DNA of 64,000 nt, taken from the NCBI GenBank assembly GCA_031553535.1, contig JAVBLM010000019.1, positions 154,128 through 218,127 on the forward strand, in the 5' to 3' direction. Under the pieces are notes generated by a model, which saw nothing but the letters and a program-made list of their open reading frames with translations, had not been told where the DNA came from and searched no databases. Source of the stretch: Bacteroidales bacterium. GTDB taxonomy: Bacteria; Bacteroidota; Bacteroidia; Bacteroidales; WCHB1-69. Every line of letters starts with the position of its first letter. Position 1 is the first letter of the stretch. Below are positions 964 to 63,122 of the stretch, piece after piece. Both the position numbers and the translations under genes were made by a program.

Positions 964-2103
964 TTATTCTTTAACTATTAATTTCTTAAATCCATCTGTA
1001 TATGATATCCTTAAATTATCATTATCATCTATAAAGATAAAATAGCCTTCAAACTGCGGATATTTTTTCAAGAAATCCATAGATTCTTTTTCTCCCATTA
1101 CCATAAATGCGGTAGCCAAAGCATCAGCTGTAATGCAATCGTCTGCAATAACAGTGGCACTTAATAACCGATGAGACACAGGATAACCTGTCCTGGGGTC
1201 AATAGTATGGGAATACCGAACCCCATTTTCTTCATAATATTTTCGATAAGTACCGGAAGTTGCAACAGATTTATCTTTTAATAATATAATACTTTGTACC
1301 GTCCTATCGGAAGAATTGTCTTTGGAAGGTTTTTCTATTCCAACATACCAAGGTGATCCATCCGGTTTTGTTCCTGAAGTACGAATCTCTCCCCCAATAT
1401 CCACTATAAAATTATCAATCCCATTATCCTGTAATTTTCTTGACATCAAATCAACAGAATAACCTTTTGCAATCGCATTAAAATCTATTTTTATCTCGGG
1501 AAATTTCTTTATCATCCTATTATTTCTTATCGCAATATTCCGGTATCCCGTATATTGTAATAAGCTATCGATCATTATCTGTGTAGGTTCTTGCCTGTTG
1601 CTAATACCAAACCCCCATATATTCACTAAATCTCCGACAGTAATATCAAAGGCTCCATTGGTCATTTCCGAGATTTCTTGTGCTTTATTAAAAATCGTAA
1701 TGAAATCTTCATTTAAAACCGGATGTTCATTCCTATTGACTTTAGCTATAAGAGAATTTTCTTCCCATAGAGAAGCTATTTGTAAGAAATTCGTTAAGAA
1801 TATCTCTATCTCCTGTTTTGTGAACACTGTACTTAAGGTGTAATATAGAATTCTATAATATGTTCCTTGTGTATATCCTTCTATCAGAACAGTATCTTGA
1901 TGTGCAGAAGATTGTTGTGAAAACTCGGATTTAATTGGATATCCTGAATGATTTAATTCCCATGCATTTCCAAAATTAATCAATGAATAGGAATAAAGAA
2001 TTGGACAATAAACAGATAATTCTAATTTTGCAGACCCATGCGATAAGGGAAATACAGAAAGTAATTTTATTATAATAAGGATTGGTAAGAATAATTTCTT
2101 CAT
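964..2103 (-). CDS. apbE: FAD:protein FMN transferase (ApbE family lipoprotein)
   Basis: 379 aa with a hydrophobic N-terminal leader. Motifs AFDITVGDLVNIWGFG, AIAKGYSVD, DIGGEI, ATSGTYRKY and SHTIDPRTGYP are typical of ApbE/Ftp. Confidence 0.85.
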   Translation of the reverse strand: MKKLFLPILIIIKLLSVFPLSHGSAKLELSVYCPILYSYSLINFGNAWELNHSGYPIKSEFSQQSSAHQDTVLIEGYTQGTYYRILYYTLSTVFTKQEIEIFLTNFLQIASLWEENSLIAKVNRNEHPVLNEDFITIFNKAQEISEMTNGAFDITVGDLVNIWGFGISNRQEPTQIMIDSLLQYTGYRNIAIRNNRMIKKFPEIKIDFNAIAKGYSVDLMSRKLQDNGIDNFIVDIGGEIRTSGTKPDGSPWYVGIEKPSKDNSSDRTVQSIILLKDKSVATSGTYRKYYEENGVRYSHTIDPRTGYPVSHRLLSATVIADDCITADALATAFMVMGEKESMDFLKKYPQFEGYFIFIDDNDNLRISYTDGFKKLIVKE

Positions 2104-2142
2104 CTACGAAATTTTAAACTTATCTAAATAAATTAGGGTTTC

Positions 2143-2150
2143 CAAAAATA
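2143..2150 (-). promoter_or_regulatory. candidate Bacteroidota -7 promoter box (TATTTTTG) for apbE
   Basis: The minus strand reads TATTTTTG, matching the TAnnTTTG consensus, about 40 nt upstream of the apbE ATG. Confidence 0.35.
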
Positions 2151-2898
2151 TATTTACCTTCCTGTTGTAATATAAAACTCTAATAAAAAAACACCTATTA
2201 AGAACAACGTCCTTAATAAACATTCTTAATCACTATATTGTTTACAAAAATAGTAATATTTAACAATAATTTCCGAATTAATTCAAAAAAAACATAGGAG
2301 ACAAAATATTACACTAGTAACCAATCAATTGTAGAGAAATAGAAAAGATTGATCTCCATAAAAAAGCATTCTACAGCATCTAAGAAAGTGCAAAAATTCA
2401 TAAAAAATGGAAGAAAAATTGCAAAATAAAGAATGAAACAAAAAAAAGAATTTGTTAAAGTTGGCATAATAAAATGATAATAAAAGCAATAATACCAAGA
2501 GTCTCCCCAGTATATTAATTTTATTTCATAACGAACGAATATATCTTTGAAAACACCTGGTCAGGCATTGGGTTTTTCTATTATAAAAGCCGATTATTAC
2601 AATCAGCAATAGATAAACCGGAAGCAACATGTAATACGGGGATAACAACAAGGCAACGCTGAAAAGCCAGACACCGGCTATGTAATTGAATATTGATCAG
2701 ATTATGATGTTTATACTTTTCATAATTTAAAATACTGCCTTAAAAAATGTTTTTGAAGGATAAAAAATCTCTATGTTATTCATCAACTTGTTCTTTCTTT
2801 GTTCTAATTTTATTATTTATATCTGTATTTTTCCCATAACAGGGAAAATTCTACCCTAAAATGAGTTTTATAGTGTTGCGAAAACTTCTCTGATGTAT

Positions 2899-3345
2899 CG
2901 GATATACTTTCACCGTATTGTGAAAGTGTTTCGACAGTAGTTTTCATACTTTCACGAAGTAGTGAAAGTATGCCGACAGCAGTTTTCATACTTTCGCAAG
3001 GTAGCGAAAGTGTGCCGACAGTAGTTTTCATACTTTCGCAGGGTAGCGAAAGTGTGCCGACAATGGTTTTCATACTTTCGCAGAGTAGTGAAAGTATGCC
3101 GACAGCAGTTTTCATACTTTCGCAGAGTAGTGAAAGTACGCCGACAGTAGTTTTCATACTTTCGCAGGGTAGTGAAAGTATGCCGACAGCGGTTTTCATA
3201 CTTTCGCAGAGTAGTGAAAGTACGCCGACAGTAGTTTTCATACTTTCGCAGGGTAGTGAAAGTATGCCGACAGCAGTTTTCATACTTTCGCAGAGTAGTG
3301 AAAGTACGCCGACAGTAGTTTTCATACTTTCGCAGTATTATGAAA
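2899..3345. repeat. tandem array A: 42-bp unit x ~10.6, each unit with a 9-bp-stem hairpin
   Basis: The unit is GTTTTCATACTTTCGCAGRGTAGTGAAAGTAYGCCGACAGYA. The anchor TGCCGA occurs at 2971/3013/3055/3097 and onward, exactly 42 apart. The inverted repeat is CATACTTTC/GAAAGTATG. Two unit subtypes alternate in the right half, giving an 84-bp higher-order repeat. The edge units are degenerate. Confidence 0.95.
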
Positions 3346-3692
3346 CCTTCCCCCGATGTATTGGAATAGCTCTGAAACATTTTTTAAAATAAAGCCCAAG
3401 TATCCGGACGATATTAACCTTGTTATCCAAGGCAAATATTTATGCTTATCCTAATCGAAATTCTATCTTCGTTGTAATCGAATGATTATTGATAATGAAA
3501 ATTCTAAAATGAGACTTACATCAATAACACTTTGTTTTAATATTATTACGATTACAAGGGACAAGAAAAAACAACCGAACTTGTTCTAATCGCCTAGCCA
3601 TGAAAGAGAAAGAAAAATTAATCCACAAATCAACTTTTGATAAGTTTATTTGCAAATAAATAGGATCCGGAATATTCCAGGTAAAGACAATT

Positions 3693-4628
3693 TTATTTCT
3701 TTCTATAATGATTTAAAAACCAATCATAGACTTTTGCAATACCTTCTCTTAATTCCGTTTTATGCTTGAACCCGATCGAGCGTAATTTAGTAACATCAAG
3801 TAATTTGCGAGGAGTTCCATCCGGCTTAGAAAGATCATTTACAATATCTCCATCAAAACCGACAATTTCTTTTATCAATAAAGCCAAATCACCTATCCGG
3901 ATATCTTCCCCTGTTCCCACATTTATATGCATTTCCTCCTTATAATGCAACATTAAATATAATAGCGCATCGGCTAAATCATCAACATATAAAAATTCAC
4001 GCATAGGGTTTCCCGTTCCCCATATTACTACTTCATGGGTACCATTGATCTTTGCCTCATGAAACTTACGAATCAATGCAGGTAAAACATGTGATGAATT
4101 AAGGTCAAAATTATCATTAATTCCATACAAGTTTGTCGGCATCGCTGAAATAAAATTACAACCATACTGACGACGATAAAACTTACATAATTCTATTCCT
4201 GCTATTTTAGCAATAGCATATGCTTCATTTGTTTCCTCCAAATAGTCACCCAATAAATATTCTTCTTTTATAGGTTGTGGAGCCATTTTTGGATAAATGC
4301 ATGAACTTCCTAAAAACAACAGCTTTGTAATACCATATTTATATGCAGCATGTATAATATTTGCTTCAATGAGTATATTATCATAAATAAATTCAGCAGG
4401 ATATGTATTATTTGCCAATATCCCCCCTACCTTTGCGGCAGCTAAAAAAACATATTGAGGCCTCTCTTTTTTAAAAAAGACATTTACTGCATGTTGATCC
4501 CGCAAGTCCAATTCTTTCAGGTCCCGTACAAGAATATTATGATAATCATTACGCTCCAAACAACGCATAATGGAAGAACCCACTAAACCGGTGTGTCCCG
4601 CGACATATATTTTTGAATTTTTATCCAT
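3693..4628 (-). CDS. fcl: GDP-L-fucose synthase (GDP-4-keto-6-deoxymannose 3,5-epimerase/4-reductase)
   Basis: 311 aa extended SDR with a GHTGLVGSS Rossmann loop, SSCIYP and the YAIAK catalytic YxxxK. It overlaps gmd by 8 nt. Confidence 0.85.
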
Positions 4629-14167: not shown

Positions 14168-14451
14168 TCCGTCTATTTTATAGCTATAAAAGGATTTTAA
14201 CAGCCTCCGGATTGTTATCTCTTCCGGCATTACGCTTGGCTTAACAGGAGTTGCGCAAGTTGATAATTTACACAAAATTATAATTTAGTTGTTGAATTGT
14301 TTATCGTTTACGGTTTACACGTTTACTTCTTGTTGGTTTATCTATTTTATTGGCTTTATCCTTTCTGCCTTCTGCATGTTATTTATTCTCTACACGACTT
14401 CATGCCTACCAATGAAAGAGATTGTATTTCGTTCTGAATAAACCTCTTACC

Positions 14452-14516
14452 GTCATGCTGAACTCGATTCAGCATCCCCTTTTTTTAAGGGGGTTGCGGA
14501 TCAAGTCCGCAATGAC
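14452..14516. repeat. stand-alone copy of the 64-nt four-way-junction (cloverleaf) module
   Basis: The sequence is GTCAT-[GCTGAA CTCGA TTCAGC]-[ATCCCC T7AA GGGGGT]-[TGCGGA TCAAG TCCGCA]-ATGAC. The same module occurs at 17070-17136, 55363-55426 and 55788-55851. Confidence 0.85.
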
Positions 14517-14700
14517 GCTCCTGACAAACAAATTACTGTCATCTTCTCGCTGTTTGATATTTCTCATTGGATATTCGCCGTAATGCGTTTCTGTTAATTC
14601 GGTGCATAACTCGTCATTTATAATTCGTAATTCGTAATTTCTTTCTGCTTGCTGCAATTGTTACCTGTAACTTGTGTGATTTCTGAAAAACTATTACAGA

Positions 14701-15492: not shown

Positions 15493-15953
15493 TATATTAA
15501 AAATAGTTGTAGGAAAATAAATCAATATCCGGGACCTTTTATCTTTTATCCTATGAAAACAAATCAAGGCCGGGAATCTATTGTAGATTATTGCCGGCCA
15601 TTATCTGCTTTCAGGGGATAAATGTTCATTTACAGTATAAAATCAAAATATAACTTCATATCAATGGCGATGTTTTCTTTATTATTTACAGAAGTTATGC
15701 AAGATATAGAAATGATGATTAATTCAAAATCCAAGGAGAAGAATTTAAGAAAAATCTGCGGATACCTGCGAAATCTGCGGGAAAAATATTCAGTGAATAA
15801 TGAATAATGAAAAGTGAATGACAAATAAATCCCCTCAACTCCGCAACCTCGAATCCCGAACCTCAAATCTTGTATTAATTTTTATTTTTTAAAACAATTC
15901 TTTCACTGATTTGTTAATAAGTCTGTAAATATATTTAATAAAATATTCATATT

Positions 15954-16956: not shown

Positions 16957-17225
16957 GAACTTGTCAAAAGTTGATATAAAATAAATAGAGATTATCTCAC
17001 TTCGTTTGATGTACTCATCTGCTTCGGGTTCGGGTGCTTTGTCGTTCCTCCTCACAGTGGCGGAAGTGCGTCATTGCGGACTCGATCCGCAATCCCCTCA
17101 ATAAAGAAGGGGATACTGAAACAAGTTTAGCATGACGGTAACAGGTTTGCTCATTGCGAAAAACGAAGCAACAGAGCTTGCAAGCTCAACGGAGTTAATC
17201 TCCTATCTCAACTTTTGACAAGTTC
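16957..17225. mobile_element. MITE-like element copy 1 (269 bp) with 18-bp terminal inverted repeats
   Basis: Left end GAACTTGTCAAAAGTTGA (16957-16974), right end TCAACTTTTGACAAGTTC (17208-17225). It carries the four-way-junction core at 17070-17136 and has no coding capacity. Confidence 0.8.
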
Positions 17226-17832: not shown

Positions 17833-17968
17833 AGTATAGTGGTTAATGGTTAGTTGTCAGTGATTAGTGTTAACTGCAAATTTTATATTAATTCTTAATT
17901 CTTAATTCTTAATTTCTTAGCAATGACGCTCTTTCGTTTGTTCAGCGTTAATAACTAACCACTAACAA

Positions 17969-19921
17969 CTATTTCCACTCTGATTTCAGATTATCCAATT
18001 GGGTAGATAATTTTTCCCATTCACTTACCGCTTGTTCCAAAGCCAGTTGATGATCTTGATATTGCTTATATAATTCACCGGAAGCAATTTGTTGCTGATA
18101 ATATTCAACGTCGGATAATTTATCATCCAACTGCTTTATTGCCTGCTCCAGGTTATGAATTTTACTTTCCTGGGTTTCAATCTGCTTTTCCAGCTTCCTG
18201 AATACACTATCCCTCTGTTTTTGTTCCTCCCAGGATAGTTTTTTATCTTTCTGCTCTTCTCTGTTTACTGAATTTATTTTTGATTGCTTGACTTCCAGGC
18301 TCTGTAAAGACTCCAAGTTCCGTTTCTCAATATAGTAACTGATATCGCCGATATATTCTTTAATATTCCCATCTTTAAACTCAAATACTTTATCTGTCAA
18401 TCCCTGTAGGAAATCACGATCATGTGAAACCAGTATCAATGTTCCGTCATAATGCAAAAGGGCATTTTTGAGAACATCTTTCGAACGCATATCCAAGTGA
18501 TTTGTCGGCTCATCCAGAATAAGTACATTATAGGGATGTAACAACAACTTGGCCAATGCCAAACGAGCTTTCTCTCCACCGGATAAAACCCCTACTTTCT
18601 TTTCTATATCATCACTGTCAAACAAAAAGCTACCCAAGATTCCCCGTACTTTGGTACGCATATCCCCTACCGCTATATCATCAATGGTTTCAAATACCGT
18701 TTTTTTCGGATCCAATAATGCATTCTGGTTTTGTGCATAATACCCTACTTTTACCATCGATCCTATCTTAAGATTTCCGGAAGTGGGCTGTAATTCCTGA
18801 TGCAGCATCCGGATAAGCGTGGTTTTTCCCTCACCGTTCCTTCCGACAAAAGCTACTTTTTCTTTCCGCTGAATAACAAAGTCCAGATTCCGTAAAATCG
18901 GTTTTACACTGTATGTTTTACATAGATTTTCAGCTTCAAATATAACTCTGTCTGCCGAAGGAGCAGGTGCAAATAGGAAATGAATATGGGAAGTATCCAG
19001 ATCATCTATTTCAACAATCTCCATTTTCTCCAATAATTTTATCCTGCTCTGAACCTGTTTTGCCTTGGTTGCTTTATAACGAAAACGTTCTACAAATTTC
19101 TCTATATCGGCAATTTCCTTTTGCTGATTTTCGAAAACTGATTTCTGATGCTCTATCCGTTCCGACCTGCGGTTTACATATTCCGAATAATTACAGTTAT
19201 AGTCAACAATTGCTCCCAATGTTATCTCAACCGTACGCTTACAGACTTTATCGAGGAACATTCTATCATGCGAAACCAAAATAACAGTACCTGAATAGGT
19301 CTGTAAAAACGATTCCAACCATTGAATGGATTCTATATCCAGATGATTTGTCGGCTCATCCAAAAGAATAATTTCCGTTTTGCGAAGCAAGATTTTTGCT
19401 AATTCCACACGCATCTGCCAACCACTGCTGAACTCACTCAAACTACGTTCAAAGTCAGTCTTTTGGAATCCCAGTCCAAGCAATACCTTTTCTGCTTCCG
19501 AATCTATATTATTTACATCCAGATATGTATATTGATGATTCAAATCTGCCAACCGCTCTAATAACTTGGCATAATGAGGAGACTCATAATCCGTAGTTTC
19601 TATTATTTCCCGATTTACTTCTTCAAGTTGTTTTTCAAGGTTGCGAATTTCAATAAAGGCGGTCATTGTTTCTGCCCATACTGTTTTGTCCGTATTTATC
19701 CGCATCTCTTGAGGCAGATAACCAATCCTGTGGCCGGAAGTAATAACTATCGTTCCTGTTTCCGGTAATAATTGTCCGGCTAAAATATTCAACAAAGTGG
19801 TTTTCCCGGCACCATTCTTCCCTACCAGCCCAATTCTATCATTGCCTCCAATAACAAAACTAACTTTATTAAATAAGTCTGTGCCCGTAAAATGAACCGA
19901 GAGATTGTTTACTGTAATCAT
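17969..19921 (-). CDS. ABC-F family ATPase (two ABC cassettes, C-terminal coiled coil)
   Basis: 650 aa with Walker A GKNGAGKTT and GRNGEGKTT, signature LSGGEKARL, Walker B ILLDEPTNHLD and LILDEPTNHLD. It has no TM domain and a Lys/Glu/Gln-rich coiled-coil tail. Confidence 0.88.
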   Translation of the reverse strand: MITVNNLSVHFTGTDLFNKVSFVIGGNDRIGLVGKNGAGKTTLLNILAGQLLPETGTIVITSGHRIGYLPQEMRINTDKTVWAETMTAFIEIRNLEKQLEEVNREIIETTDYESPHYAKLLERLADLNHQYTYLDVNNIDSEAEKVLLGLGFQKTDFERSLSEFSSGWQMRVELAKILLRKTEIILLDEPTNHLDIESIQWLESFLQTYSGTVILVSHDRMFLDKVCKRTVEITLGAIVDYNCNYSEYVNRRSERIEHQKSVFENQQKEIADIEKFVERFRYKATKAKQVQSRIKLLEKMEIVEIDDLDTSHIHFLFAPAPSADRVIFEAENLCKTYSVKPILRNLDFVIQRKEKVAFVGRNGEGKTTLIRMLHQELQPTSGNLKIGSMVKVGYYAQNQNALLDPKKTVFETIDDIAVGDMRTKVRGILGSFLFDSDDIEKKVGVLSGGEKARLALAKLLLHPYNVLILDEPTNHLDMRSKDVLKNALLHYDGTLILVSHDRDFLQGLTDKVFEFKDGNIKEYIGDISYYIEKRNLESLQSLEVKQSKINSVNREEQKDKKLSWEEQKQRDSVFRKLEKQIETQESKIHNLEQAIKQLDDKLSDVEYYQQQIASGELYKQYQDHQLALEQAVSEWEKLSTQLDNLKSEWK

Positions 19922-25049: not shown

Positions 25050-25072
25050 ATTTATTATCATCAACAAATCGA

Positions 25073-25113
25073 GTAGGAAGAAAACAAAGTAGTTTTCTTC
25101 CTACTTTCGTTTT
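25073..25113 (+). terminator. rho-independent terminator of the zinc-ribbon gene
   Basis: 13-bp perfect stem GTAGGAAGAAAAC / GTTTTCTTCCTAC with a 6-nt loop, followed by TTTCGTTTT. Confidence 0.75.
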
Positions 25114-25203
25114 CCGACCTCTCACACCACCGTACGTGCCGTTCGGCATACGGCGGTTCCTTACTTACGATACAACTTTACGATAACAATCCATCAGAAA
25201 TGG

Positions 25204-25542
25204 CTAGTTGGCTCGTTTGAGATTATCGTTGCTCAAGGCACGACTAAGAATAAAACTATGGGCAATATGCCAATAACCCTTGCGGGTATTAGCCCATTCC
25301 CACGCCTTTCTCTTATCAATACCACAGCGTTTGAGATTCTCAAAGCGGGTCTTCACTCTCTTCCAGCATTTCCAGATACACATACGGAGCCTGCTCCTAT
25401 ACCATTCATTCAATGTTTGAAGACGGTTCTTCATATCTGCCAGCTTGAATACTTCAAGCCAACCCAGTATAAAGGAGCCAAGAGAGCTTTTACGCTTCCC
25501 GTAGCCCAGACCGTTACTACGACCGGTCAATTCCTTTTGCAA
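25204..25542 (-). pseudogene. group II intron reverse transcriptase/maturase, C-terminal (X/maturase) fragment only
   Basis: The 112-aa ORF FILGWLEVFKLADMKNRLQTLNEWYRSRLRMCIWKCWKRVKTRFENLKRCGIDKRKAWEWANTRKGYWHIAHS matches the conserved C-terminus of bacterial intron-encoded proteins. The ~300-aa RT palm/fingers region is absent. Confidence 0.8.
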
Positions 25543-25618
25543 GAATACTATTTTTCCCCTTCTTATTTATCCTTTCATTTTCTTATTATCCTGAAAACTT
25601 TACCGGTTTCGCAGGAAA

Positions 25619-25921
25619 AAGAAAATATTTTACTGTTTGGGATAGACATTTTGGGGGAATCTGAAAACATTTTGCCATTTAGTTTGGATATTTTCAGAAG
25701 ATCCGAAAGCAACAAACCATTTGGTTTGGACGTTTCGGAAGATCCGAAAGAAGCAAACCATTTGGTTTGGACGTTTCGGAAGATCCGAAAGAAGCAAACC
25801 ATTTGGTTTGGACGTTTCGGAAGATCCGAAAGAAGCAAACCATTTGGTTTGGACGTTTCGGAAAGACCCGAAAGAAGCAAACCATTTGGTTTGGACGCTT
25901 CGGAAAGATCCGAAAGAAGCA
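25619..25921. repeat. tandem array B: 41-bp unit x ~7 with nested palindrome, inside the intron remnant
   Basis: The unit is GATCCGAAAGAAGCAAACCATTTGGTTTGGACGTTTCGGAA. The anchor ATCCGAA occurs at 25701/25742/25783/25824. The outer inverted repeat is TCCGAAA/TTTCGGA and the inner palindrome is CAAACCA-TT-TGGTTTG. The leftmost units are degenerate. Confidence 0.92.
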
Positions 25922-26528
25922 TCTATATTATATCGAATATTAAGATAAGTTATGAATGATTTTTCCGGAGAGGTTTATTCTTTATTAATGTCCTATCAGA
26001 ACACTTATCAAACAGGCAGGCCTATATCTGTGAGAGACACACTAAGGGGGATATTATCCGTACTTGAAAAAGTCTCAATTTATACCCCGAACTCACATTA
26101 CAATAAGGTTCTGTCCTTCAATACTTGGTAAGGTTCCTGCTGTACATTTTTTTTCATGGGCAGGCTTGTGTCCGTATCTACTATGGCATCGGCTGACTTC
26201 TCACAGCAAGCTTTATACTCCGTGCTTCCGAAAAAAAACATCCGCACGTCTGTGAGACCTCCCCAGTTAAGATTCTATTCTTTCCATCTTATACCTGCTT
26301 GATTTACCATGAACGTTCCCAATAGCTATGGGGCTTTGTTTTGTTTAGCAAACGATCCCACATTCTTTGGCCTTATATCAAGTTTCTGTGCGTCAGGCCA
26401 GATGTTTGCCGCTGACTTCCTTCAGATTCCTTCTCGCGATAGACACCCTTGTCGTTGGCTATACTCTTCCCGCTATCTGGGCGTGTTTAGGACTTGCACC
26501 TGTTAGAATAAAACCATGCTGAACGAAC

Positions 26529-42617: not shown

Positions 42618-42850
42618 CATCCTTCCGGCCGCCTGCCAACTTTGAGAAGTTGCCGGGTTCCTGTTTGAGATTGAAAACAACCTTCCAGGAGTTCCTGGAT
42701 TCCTGTCTGGGTTTTCCAACAGGCTTTTCCGCACGTGGTATTCCCTGTTTGGACTTTCAAACAGGTTCCCAGGAGTTGCTGGATCCCTATTTGGAATTGA
42801 AAACGACCTTCCGGAAGCTCCTGGATCCTCGCCCGGAATTGAAAACCGGT
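42618..42850. repeat. tandem array C: 42-bp unit x ~5.5 (inverted relative of array D)
   Basis: Anchors at 42660/42702/42744/42786/42828 are all 42 apart. Units contain the palindrome CCAGGA-GT-TCCTGG and a TGTTT..AAACA hairpin. The reverse complement of unit 42660-42701 matches array D unit 54696-54737 at 31/42 positions by hand alignment. Confidence 0.85.
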
Positions 42851-42979
42851 TTTTAAGGCGTTTGAAGCCTTTCAGGAGGATTGGCAAAACACATTCCGGC
42901 CTTCTGGAGCGGTTGCCGGTAAATCCGACATGCCTTTCATGGCCGAAAACACGTTTGCCGGAGGCGGACAATAAGCGGT

Positions 42980-43269: not shown

Positions 43270-43900
43270 CAACTATTTTATTAGCTATATCATTTTTTTA
43301 AAATATTATTATTATTGTAAATACATGTTTCGCTATTTTGATCTATTGGGGAATGCGGCAAAGCAAAACACCTGTAAAAACAGTTGAAAAGAGATTGAAA
43401 TGATTTGCTATCTTCTTATTGTTTTTTTATTGTTGCCCAGCTTTGTTTTTAGCCTTGTGCAAGAGAACATTCATCTTTTTTCTGAACAGTTATTCTCTAT
43501 AGTAAAACAAGCTAATTATAGTTCATTTAATTTGTTTATCCTCTATGTACATGCGATCTATAATATTGAAAAAGATCCGGGAAGATAAGAAAAAAATGCC
43601 ATAACGCCACACAAAGAGAAAGAATTGTTTGTCTTTATTATAGAACTTGTCAAAAGCTGATGATGAAGTTTTTGAATAACGTTATAGCCATCAATTGACA
43701 GAAAACGTTTTTTGAGATTATTTCATGAAACAAAAATTCTTTAATGTAGTTATGAATGAATCAAATTCTTACAATCAAAAAACATCGACAGATTTAAACA
43801 ACTTCATAATCGAAAAAACTTATAAAGAGATATTCCGAGATATTGTTTTACTATTTTTATTATCTCTCATTTCTTTATTCAAACAAGAACACAAAAGTTG

Positions 43901-50941: not shown

Positions 50942-51290
50942 GATCGAAAGCCATGCTGATGTCCCTTTCTGATTCACGTTAATTTAGCGACAGAAGTTAT
51001 ACAGGCTATACAAAATTACAGGAAGTCATAAATAATGGTGAATGATTAATGATAAATGGTTAATTCCGCTTTTTGTTTTCTTCCTTTTCAACTGTCTTTT
51101 TATTATTAATTAGTAGCTGAATATATTTTTTCCGCCAATCTCCCGGATTTTTCCCTGAATCTTACATTTTGAATCTTGAATTTACCATTAATCACTATTT
51201 CTATAACTTGTGTAACTTCTTATAACTTGCGCAACTTCTATCGGCGAAGAAATATTTTTCCGGATTTACGCTTTGTAAAGAGAGAAATGG

Positions 51291-54446: not shown

Positions 54447-54654
54447 TTGAGAGGATTTAACGTTACAAATTCAAGATTCAACGTTCAAGATTATAAATAA
54501 TTTTTCTGCATTTTATCTATTTTATCTGCTTTATCTGCTTTATCGATTTTATCAGTTTAATTTTTCCCGCAGACCCCGCAGATTTTCCGCAGATTTTTTA
54601 TTGTAAAATTCGCATTACTAATTCTTAATTCTTAATTTTTAATTCTTAATTCTC

Positions 54655-55150
54655 CAGAGCAGGCGTTCAGATGCCTTAGATACCTGCTTGCAATTCCGGA
54701 CAAAGGTTCAGGAACTCCTGAATACCTGTTTTCAATCTCAGACAAGTATCCGGGAAGTCTCGAAACCCTGTTTCCAGTTCCGGACAATGGTTCAGGAAGC
54801 CCTGGAACCCAGTTTGAAAATTCAAACAAGGAATACAAAAGGGGAAAAACCCTGTTTAAAAATCTAAACAGGGAATATCGCAGATGGAAAACCCTGTTTG
54901 AAAATCCAAACAAGGAATTCCACAGGAGGAAAACCCTGTTTGAAAATTCAAACAGGTAATACCATGACAAAGACTGCCTGTTTGAAAATCAAAACAGGAT
55001 TCATTACGGCAAAGACTGCCTGTTTAAAAATAAAAACAGGGTACATTACGACAAAGGCTGCCTGTTTAGAAATAAAAACAGGGTACACTATGACAAAGGC
55101 TGCCTGTTTGAAAATCAAAACAGGGTCTGTTGCAATGGAAAGAACCGGGA
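54655..55150. repeat. tandem array D: 42-bp unit x ~11.8, two diverged sub-families in one strict register
   Basis: CCTG anchors at 54683, 54725, 54767, 54851, 54893, 54935, 54977, 55019, 55061 and 55103 are all multiples of 42 apart. The right-hand units are GCCTGTTTGAAAATCAAAACAGG+19 nt (inverted repeat CCTGTTT/AAACAGG). The left-hand units carry the palindrome TTCAGGA-AC-TCCTGAA. Confidence 0.93.
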
Positions 55151-55207: not shown

Positions 55208-55500
55208 GAACTTGTCAAAAGTTGACACAAGAATCGATCTTTTGTCAGGGATTATCTCACTACGTTTCGATGCTCTCACCTGCTTCGCGCTCGGGTGCCA
55301 CGTCGCTCGTGCCTCATTCCTGCCTGACAGAGATCAGACCTCGCTCTTAATAACATATTGCCGTCATGCTGAACTTGTTTCAGCATCCCCGTTTTTAAGG
55401 GGATTGCGGATCAAGTCCGCAATGACGCTCTTAACTAATATATTACCATTATCATTTGCGATGAACGAAGTAATCCCTTAAATCAACTTTTGACAACTTT
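55208..55500. mobile_element. MITE-like element copy 2 (293 bp)
   Basis: Left end GAACTTGTCAAAAGTTGA (55208-55225), right end TCAACTTTTGACAAC (55483-55497). The four-way-junction core at 55363-55426 is inverted relative to copies 1 and 3, while the left subterminal arm (TTATCTCACTAC..GATGC.CTCACCTGCTTCGCG) keeps the same orientation. Confidence 0.78.
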
Positions 55501-55673: not shown

Positions 55674-56009
55674 GAACTTGTCAAAAGTTGATATAAAATG
55701 AATAAAGGTTATCTCACTACATGTCGATGCACTCACCTGCTTCGCGTCCGGATGCTTCGTCGTTCCTCCTTACAATGGCGGAAGTGTGTCATTGCGGACT
55801 TGATCCGCAATCCCCTTAAAAACGGGGATGCTGAAACAAGTTCAGCATGACGGTAGCAGGTTTATTCAGAGCGAGAACCGAAATCCGAAGGATTCGGTAT
55901 AGCCAACCACCCGAGCCACGGAGTGTAGCGATTGCATCGACACGTAGCGAGATAACCGAACTTGCGAGCTCAATGGAGTTAACCTCCGGTATCAACTTTT
56001 GACAAGTTC
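55674..56009. mobile_element. MITE-like element copy 3 (336 bp)
   Basis: Perfect 18-bp terminal inverted repeats (55674-55691 and 55992-56009). It has ~30-bp subterminal inverted repeats (GGTTATCTCACTACATGTCGATGCA / TGCATCGACACGTAGCGAGATAACC) and the core at 55788-55851. Confidence 0.82.
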
Positions 56010-62346: not shown

Positions 62347-62469
62347 TCAGTACAATACAGTCTATTTAAAAATATTGTACTTGCAATAAATGCAATCCCA
62401 TCGAAACGGAGCAAAATAAACCGTTTGTATTTATTCCCTCATTACGGGATGTCAAGGAATAGTATATGT

Positions 62470-62855
62470 TTCCCCCTGTAACATCTGTATAAACCTTTCC
62501 GAGAACTGGGACACCTATAAACGAGAGTAAATATATCTTTCCCAGAATTGGGACACCTATAAACGAGGATAAATATACCTTTCCCAGAGTTGGGACACCT
62601 ATAAACGAGGATGAATATACCTTTCCCAGGATTGGGATACCTCTAAACGAGAGTGAATATATCTTTCCCAGGATTGGGATACCTCTAAACGAGAGTGAAT
62701 ATATCTTTCCCAGGATTGGGATACCTCTAAACGAGGATAAATATACCTCTCCCAGAGTTGGGACACCTCTAAACGAGGGTGAATATACCTTTCCCAGGGT
62801 TGGGATACCTCCAAACGAGAGTGAATATATCTTTCCCAGAGCTGGGAAACATTCA
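62470..62855. repeat. tandem array E: 42-bp unit x ~9 with short palindrome
   Basis: The unit is CTTTCCCAGRRTTGGGAYACCTMTAAACGAGRRTRAATATAY. The anchor TCCCAG occurs at 62540/62582/62624/62666/62708/62750/62792/62834. The palindrome is TCCCA-GAAT-TGGGA. Confidence 0.93.
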
Positions 62856-63122
62856 TGCAAGAGTGCGGACATGTTGACAAAAGGACAATTCTTTTTAACA
62901 TTATTATTCCCCTCTGTTTAATTTTCTATTATTGGCCACTACCAATGATGCTTTTTCATTTGTTCTGTGTTATTTACCATTGATCATTATTTCTATAACT
63001 TCTATTGCCTGGAAGATCTTAATATCATCATTTCTGTTGTCATTTTACTATATCAACTTTGAACAAGTTCGAATGAAAAAATAGTGTATTTTTGTAATCC
63101 TTAACTATCGGTATATAAGCTT

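Follow-up and report, generated by a model that had tools for sequence, protein, structure and literature searches.

The stretch of DNA analysed here, called the window throughout, comprises 64,000 nucleotides (nt) of contig JAVBLM010000019.1 from a Bacteroidales bacterium. It is core chromosome with a GC content of 36% and encodes rpoB and rpoC, ribosomal proteins, ftsY, lytB, pyrF and lpxK. Near its beginning, a spacer of 1,589 bp (2104-3692), bordered by the start of apbE on one side and by the stop codon of fcl on the other, hosts a tandem array of 42-bp units, which we refer to as array A. The sequence-only reading of this DNA had suggested that the array might sit inside a non-autonomous element of about 1.2 kb with terminal inverted repeats (TIRs), and its anatomy, its surroundings and its counterparts in the window allow this idea to be evaluated together with several others.

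Arranged in register, array A consists of a well-preserved core with decayed units on both sides (Table 1). Autocorrelation puts the self-similar region at 2849-3410, and Tandem Repeats Finder (TRF) detects 9.9 copies of a period of 42, with 90% matches, in 2920-3335. With 41% GC the array differs from its flanks, which have 27-30%. The 84-bp higher-order repeat at its centre is the youngest part: the units starting at 3109, 3193 and 3277 are identical (42/42) and those at 3151 and 3235 agree at 41/42 positions, whereas adjacent units within this block match at 38-39/42 only, a difference of three to four bases. Variable sites 18 (A/G), 31 (C/T) and 40 (T/C) alternate without exception along the block and define the subtypes GCAGAG..GTACGCC..GTAG and GCAGGG..GTATGCC..GCAG; in 120-bp windows self-identity is accordingly higher at lag 84 (0.99) than at lag 42 (0.93). 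The alternation of GCAGAG and GCAGGG subtypes with 84-bp periodicity, already noticed in the sequence-only reading, is thus perfect at these sites, over just 2.5 copies. The recent growth in two-unit steps proposed along with it fits the data as well, since three identical units interleaved with two near-identical ones indicate that the last growth copied two units per step.

The edges of the array tell of an older history. Units at 2899-2940 and 3325-3345 had been described as old and degenerate, which they are, and decayed units can be followed beyond them, as far as 2857 and 3402. Edge units 2857-2898 and 3319-3360 have 17-27 of 42 positions in common with the centre, and the outermost units are alike in their 3' halves (GCGAAAACTTCTCTGATGTAT versus ATGAAACCTTCCCCCGATGTA). 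Decayed edges that stay in register, with outermost units that still resemble each other, point to long residence rather than recent insertion, and this is the pattern of an old array with a renewed centre. An independent short-read contig reproduces array A's left edge before ending inside it; short-read assemblies of the source organism break within the arrays. Proteins of the window are also present in the Logan assemblies of SRR23967707/09.

Each unit of array A carries a palindrome of the form (C)ATACTTTCRC-N6-GYGAAAGTAT(G) with a stem of 10-11 bp. Two units are predicted to fold with -26.5 kcal/mol on the plus strand (z -3.75) and with -26.9 kcal/mol on the minus strand (z -5.9). In a structure count 89% of cells pair, and stem pair 14-23 occurs as A:U in two sequences, as G:C in two and as G.U in five. 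An Rfam search returned nothing for the arrays beyond microRNA noise.

Table 1. Features of the window, with coordinates, strand and the basis of each assignment
Feature	Coordinates	Strand	Basis and remarks
Entire array A, 13 units of 42 bp in register, with decayed edges 2857-2940 and 3319-3402	2857-3402		register listing, unit identity matrix
Array A, well-preserved core, ~9.4 units	2941-3335		units share 33-42/42 positions
84-bp higher-order repeat, two alternating unit subtypes	3109-3318		unit identity matrix
Example unit palindrome C-ATACTTTCGC / AGAGTA / GTGAAAGTA-C-G	3113-3140	+	fold; stem of 9-11 pairs, 6-nt loop; in every core unit
Spurious open reading frame (ORF) through array A	2813-3325	-	ORF list; these three ORFs 140-170 residues
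Spurious ORF through array A	2952-3380	-	ORF list
Spurious ORF through array A	2970-3392	+	ORF list
Solo word like the end of a MITE (miniature inverted-repeat transposable element), TCAACTTTTGATAAGTTT	3630-3647	+	16/18; palindrome AACTT-N5-AAGTT; 228 bp from array A edge
Proposed left terminus GAATTTGTTAAAGTTGG	2448-2464	+	chance-level resemblance; outside the feature
apbE	964-2103	-	Pfam and NCBIfam
fcl	3693-4628	-	NCBIfam GDPFucSynFcl, 501 bits; Pfam
Terminator-like hairpin, directly past fcl stop codon (3693)	3667-3680	-
Second terminator-like hairpin with T-run, abutting right edge of array A	3394-3409	-	consensus scan only
Third terminator-like hairpin, between array A and apbE	2589-2607	-	consensus scan only
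Putative Bacteroidetes-type -7 box TATTTTTG, 40 nt upstream of apbE start (2103)	2143-2150	-	TAnnTTTG motif scan
Array B, 41-bp units x ~5, palindrome TTAATGYC..GGCATTAA	15290-15497		TRF, autocorrelation
Array C, 41-bp units x ~6-7, palindrome TTTCGGA-AGA-TCCGAAA, inside degenerate group II intron	25651-25938		TRF, autocorrelation
Array D, eleven 42-bp units, CCTGTTT palindrome arm kept	54680-55141	+	TRF, autocorrelation
Array E, 42-bp units x ~9, 126-bp higher-order repeat, palindrome TCCCA-N4-TGGGA	62486-62863		TRF, autocorrelation
Array F, decayed 42-bp array homologous to D, reverse orientation	42640-42870	-	BLAST
Degenerate group II intron	25066-26461	-	Rfam D1-D4 26272-26443; domain V/VI 25068-25158; GIIM-only ORF 25204-25542
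Reference full MITE, 269 bp, 18-bp TIR GAACTTGTCAAAAGTTGA	16957-17225	+
Other full MITE copy	55208-55500		side by side with the next, after array D
Other full MITE copy	55674-56009		side by side with the preceding, after array D
Internal MITE fragment	14416-14535

The proposed element depends on two words in the spacer that resemble the ends of a resident MITE family. Members of this family are 269-336 bp long and share a conserved core GTCATTGCGGACTTGATCCGCAATCCCC...GCTGAAACAAGTTCAGCATGACGG, and a palindrome, AACTT-N5-AAGTT, lies within the TIR. The family showed no clear target-site duplication, and no parent transposase was found by Pfam among the ORFs of the window, while scans of viral contigs for the MITE or a parent insertion sequence gave two chance matches inside a phage terminase gene and none for the MITE core. 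Within edit distance 2 of the 18-bp terminus the window has nine sites, compared with 0.05 predicted by a null model, or 0.01 if only its 13.5 kb of intergenic DNA are considered. Against such an expectation the word proposed as the right end, at 3630-3647, is real: it matches the MITE terminus TCAACTTTTGACAAGTTC at 16/18 positions, and by eye some 15 nt further inward resemble the right-end type of the MITE, TAATCC..AAA, for about 33 nt in total. BLAST with 9-nt words, comparing the spacer 2104-3692 with the MITE, aligned 3627-3662 only, and an nhmmer profile of the MITE, run on the same spacer with --max, recovered only the terminal ~20 nt at an E-value of about 2-5, by which a decayed MITE between array A and this word could be discarded.

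The word at 2448-2464 fares differently. Its letters are as claimed, yet it lies at edit distance 4 from the terminus (two substitutions, one deletion and one end mismatch), a degree of resemblance that is at chance level: 12 matches at this distance outside the MITE family occur in the window where 11.2 are expected, and intergenic DNA is expected to contain 2.55, with at least one in 93% of simulations. Other solo words occur at 43643 and 63053, and their match to the MITE is confined to the terminus. The latter (63053-63070) lies 190 bp downstream of array E. It also sits 17 nt upstream of a -7 box TATTTTTG at 63087-63094, which precedes the gene of an S8 peptidase (63123), and this MITE end may form the upstream part of a putative promoter of the peptidase gene.

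Array A is one of at least six such arrays. In an autocorrelation scan of the window at lags 12-139, only five repetitive regions were found, arrays A to E, each with either 41 or 42 bp as its primary period. With the decayed array F there are six, roughly one for every 10 kb, which together make up about 3.3% of the window. A clear palindrome is present in five of the six, with stems of 7-10 bp in A-D; the 5-bp stem of array E is weak (z about -1). Units of A, B, C, D and E cannot be aligned to each other in any rotation or on either strand (z below 2), and neither circular alignments nor k-mer sharing gave a shared motif or a sign of common ancestry beyond what shuffled sequences yield. A likeness between A and the D3 subtype of array D, GTAG-N5-hairpin, was dismissed as a mere 4-mer without significance.

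How such divergence can arise is illustrated by array D, whose subtypes drift from D1 over D2 to D3 along the array while the 42-bp register is kept. Neighbouring subtypes are still recognizable as related (D1-D2 z 4.6, D2-D3 z 6.3), and D1 and D3 are already unalignable (z 1.2). Turnover with a kept register implies that common descent and fast sequence change can explain a shared period without a special mechanism, and the arrays of the window are most simply read as a satellite population that is old and evolves fast. Arrays D and F are composite arrays at two loci, separated by 12 kb and opposite in orientation; both show two unit subtypes that agree in kind and order, and a pyrimidine-rich tail stands between each array and the gene or MITE that comes next. 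This family, at least, has undergone dispersal or duplication.

Array C adds a different setting. Compared with a related intron (L106), the intron that holds it has lost an ORF for reverse transcriptase (RT) of about 1.05 kb, in whose place stand about 550 bp (about 26090-25538) containing the array. This comparison gave no clean insertion boundaries at array C; the RT gene was replaced, not interrupted. Relatives likewise have intergenic arrays, with other periods, 21-32 bp, in 1.3 Mb of fetched loci. The nearest isolates, OttesenSCG-928, carry a 30-bp unit in 7.4 copies between sufB and sufC (L087, 5264-5488; also L088 and L089), and a Bacteroidales metagenome-assembled genome (L048, 4752-5177) contains a 21-bp palindromic unit, GCTAAATTTATTTTAGC..., in 20 copies with 42- and 63-bp higher-order structure.

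Taken as a whole, these observations are best explained, with a probability that we put at roughly 0.6, by array A being a resident, non-coding hairpin minisatellite of the intergenic spacer that evolves in place, with the relic of a solitary MITE end nearby. The array would change its length through out-of-register pairing between units, by replication slippage or unequal recombination, probably assisted by the hairpins. Its latest growth would have copied a two-unit block at least twice, and its edges would be left over from an earlier version of the array. The MITE-end word 228 bp to the right would be a separate relic of the resident family and not a boundary of the array. At array D, which like array A lies in a long AT-rich spacer, an intact MITE begins 67 bp downstream and two intact MITEs are found, which suggests that MITEs and arrays merely share the few long AT-rich spacers. 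We expect array A to have no sequence-specific function and to be at most structured spacer DNA between two transcription units.

How far do other explanations account for the same locus? Three of the six reading frames are open through array A, and 42 bp is a multiple of three, so that the array might be taken to encode a repetitive protein, for instance in the minus-strand ORF 2813-3325 of 170 residues with its 14-residue repeats MKTTVGVLSLLCES. The open frames follow from a 42-bp unit without stop codons in three frames, and arrays C and E likewise have spurious ORFs running through them (25258-25959 and 62366-62872). In the longest frame, on the minus strand, the alternating sites 18, 31 and 40 are all non-synonymous, including a Leu/Pro exchange, and the sister arrays with 41-bp units are unable to keep a frame. 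The ORF also runs into the AT-rich spacer without a start context, and a search of 5.8 billion proteins with the three ORFs gave no homologue, a weak negative because the organism's own ORF was not recovered either (uncalled or filtered). Coding is effectively refuted, the chance that array A encodes a protein being virtually nil, and its annotation as a gene would be wrong despite the three open frames. The proposal that the array is the internal minisatellite of an element spanning 2448-3647, of the kind known as MITEPgRS or BrickBuilt, has more behind it. Such an element would have been mobilised in trans via the TIRs of the resident MITE and inserted between fcl and apbE, its left end having decayed since. 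The genuine right word with its similar nucleotides further inward speaks for this, as does the presence of a one-sided terminus word 190-230 bp from both A and E, and the arrays have a GC content of 41-44% against 27-30% in their flanks. There is precedent in Bacteroidales in MITEPgRS, with up to 14 tandem 41-nt repeats between TIRs (PMC2575886), and most copies of BrickBuilt are without one or both TIRs, only 4 of 19 Porphyromonas gingivalis copies keeping both (PMC4596501), which is why the proposal retains some weight. We nevertheless consider it quite unlikely. The left word is at chance level, and the sequences outside 2448 (aaaaaaaa) and 3647 (atttgcaa) contain no matching direct repeat that could be a target-site duplication. 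BLAST found no homology between the leaders or tails of A and E or between the flanks of A and those of the other arrays, nor nhmmer between A and the MITE interior. The word beside E is of the left-end type and that beside A of the right-end type, so the two do not define one common architecture, and at arrays D and F the word points away from the array. The check suggested in the sequence-only reading, whether the 18-bp terminus regularly brackets arrays, came out negative in the window: none of the six has the word on both sides, the nearest one being always one-sided, 67-1,460 bp away and in either orientation. Neither the segment 2448-3647 nor the A unit has a second copy in the window, and the hairpin pattern of the unit matched only 14 isolated chance hairpins, and no array, in JGI metagenome contigs. 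Two alternative pairs of TIRs, a perfect 13-nt repeat at 2740-2752/3375-3387 and a 14-nt repeat at 2115-2128/3635-3648, were rejected as A/T-rich, devoid of target-site duplications and of about chance frequency. The decayed edges in register favour long evolution in place, and without a second end, a target-site duplication or, in the window, a second copy the element bounded by TIRs is not supported.

The two remaining explanations take up what the arrays have in common. The arrays could be functional structured elements, either transcribed into RNAs of repeated hairpins that titrate a protein or serve as processing substrates, or acting as DNA scaffolds, with palindromes at intervals of four helical turns that would attract proteins or be extruded as cruciforms and so insulate neighbouring transcription units. 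Palindromes are kept in nearly all arrays although the sequences are unrelated, variants compatible with G.U or G.T pairs occur on the plus strand in arrays A and B, and 41-42 bp is close to 4 x 10.5 bp. A sequence resembling a -7 box, TATCTTTG at 2542-2549 on the plus strand, is directed into array A, which is framed by terminator-like hairpins, and segments of BrickBuilt have promoter activity (PMC4596501). We regard such a function as unlikely: both strands fold about equally well, so the transcribed strand cannot be inferred; motif sharing between arrays is no better than in shuffles, which leaves no common binding partner evident; positions relative to genes do not agree (downstream of genes, between divergent ones, within a dead intron); and Rfam gives no match, with the hairpin of array E being weak. 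Alternatively, the common period could stem from a process that measures length, be it enzymatic or the work of a dedicated mobile agent, and assembles arrays out of arbitrary sequence containing a hairpin. Five of five long-period regions at lag 41 or 42, with the decayed array F at 42, argue for it, as do units that are unalignable and share no motif while relatives have periods of 21-32 bp. Array C sits where the RT gene was deleted within the intron, an indication that arrays appear in new places. A candidate enzyme is missing from the window, where Pfam reveals no transposase, HUH or Cas protein, the turnover in array D lets common descent produce equal periods without a ruler, and array C has no clean boundaries; such a ruler is, in our view, very doubtful. 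The wider proposition is that hairpin minisatellites are densely scattered in this lineage and that a measuring process or selection for helical phasing of the palindromes, and not ordinary slippage, keeps their unrelated units at 41-42 bp, or about four helical turns; we likewise judge it improbable, if somewhat less so. If it applied, the 41-nt MITEPgRS repeats of P. gingivalis could be another face of the same phenomenon.

Several points weigh against a resident minisatellite evolving in place as the full account. Covariation in the stem of array A is statistically not significant. The MITE-end word near the array is genuine, and a decayed element with a single remaining end is thinkable given the loss of TIRs in BrickBuilt. 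Copies of the A unit may exist elsewhere in the genome, of which 64 kb were examined, and the account is based on a single genome. The D/F family is present at two loci, so some dispersal mechanism exists. Plain slippage, finally, leaves the universal 41-42-bp period of the long-period arrays in the window unexplained, given the 21-32 bp of relatives.

Comparison with known systems helps to place the array. A literature search for prokaryotic arrays of 41 or 42 bp gave only the papers on P. gingivalis, next to eukaryotic satellites. MITEPgRS (also MITE464) of that species has ISPg1-type TIRs, Repeat A and Repeat B blocks and about 20 copies, and its Repeat C consists of 41-nt tandem units in variable copy number (PMC2575886). 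Array A resembles it in its Bacteroidales host, its intergenic position and its tandem direct repeats of nearly equal length (42 versus 41). Both TIRs of MITEPgRS, however, are identical to those of ISPg1 and each contains Repeat A/B, whereas array A has one TIR-like word; and MITEPgRS is dispersed in about 20 copies of the same unit, whereas array A is without a conserved leader or tail and without a second copy in the window. BrickBuilt, another MITE of P. gingivalis, combines a 23-nt minisatellite with a leader, a tail and TIRs (PMC4596501). Array A shares with it a minisatellite free of spacers and the intergenic location that is invariable in BrickBuilt, many copies of which lack one or both TIRs. 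These two are the closest known systems, and their testable defining features are absent here: a TIR at each end, conserved leader and tail segments and a duplicated target site mark a MITE with an internal minisatellite, and array A has none of these in full. With head-to-tail units in the range of 10-100 bp, non-coding and within a spacer, it does conform to an intergenic minisatellite or variable number tandem repeat (VNTR).

Similar features are found further afield. VNTR loci of the MIRU type in Mycobacterium tuberculosis are made of head-to-tail units of tens of bp, lie between genes at many loci and gain or lose whole units. The head-to-tail intergenic units of array A, which would evolve by whole units, are comparable; MIRU units, in contrast, are homologous between loci and are not organised around a palindrome, whereas the loci in the window share only period and palindrome. 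REP and BIME sequences of enterobacteria and pseudomonads have a consensus throughout the genome, alternate in orientation within clusters and are associated with RAYT transposases. As short imperfect intergenic palindromes that form hairpins, sometimes in clusters of several units, they are reminiscent of the arrays described here, but the units in the window are direct repeats without a consensus across loci, and Pfam detected no RAYT (Y1/HUH) transposase among the ORFs of the window. A CRISPR array was ruled out, as whole 42-bp units repeat without unique spacers.

The spacer around array A and its neighbouring genes deserve a brief description. Upstream of fcl lies gmd, a name backed by Pfam and NCBIfam. 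TAnnTTTG is the Bacteroidetes -7 consensus, and array A lies about 700 bp farther upstream than the box assigned to apbE. The flanks of the array within the fcl-apbE spacer contain no remnant of suf genes or of other coding sequence. The collections searched contain no close relative, ApbE having a best identity of 53% among GTDB species genomes and of 62% among the 5.8 billion proteins; in the two nearest contexts that were fetched (58% identity) sufS is followed directly by apbE, without an fcl-apbE junction. In these nearest relatives (L085 and L087-L089; 58% identity) a sufB-C-D-S cluster ends with apbE, after a gap of 10-12 bp. In the window, apbE stands alone, preceded by a 1.6-kb spacer, and adjoins a giant adhesin-like gene of about 4,245 residues; its product is extended at the N terminus by some 60 residues resembling a signal peptide.

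Shorter repeats are also present. Clusters of short tandem repeats occur in intergenic spacers at 14299-14326, 14606-14639, 15794-15819, 17837-17971, 51033-51239 and 54469-54653. Their units are mostly 7 bp long (TTAATTC, TAATTCT, TAGTGGT, TAATGAT), with others of 9 and 11 bp, and differ among clusters; a run of TTAATTC/TAATTCT is found both at 17886-17914 and at 54616-54658. In cyanobacteria, the heptamer repeats known as STRR look similar to these clusters.

The findings on array A are in part unspectacular: a higher-order repeat within a bacterial minisatellite is ordinary, and its interpretation as part of a transposon does not hold. The array is nevertheless of practical relevance, as it breaks short-read assemblies and would suit the typing of strains. 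If the equal period seen in six arrays extends over the genome, it raises a broader question, namely what fixes the length of a repeat independently of its sequence in a bacterial genome.

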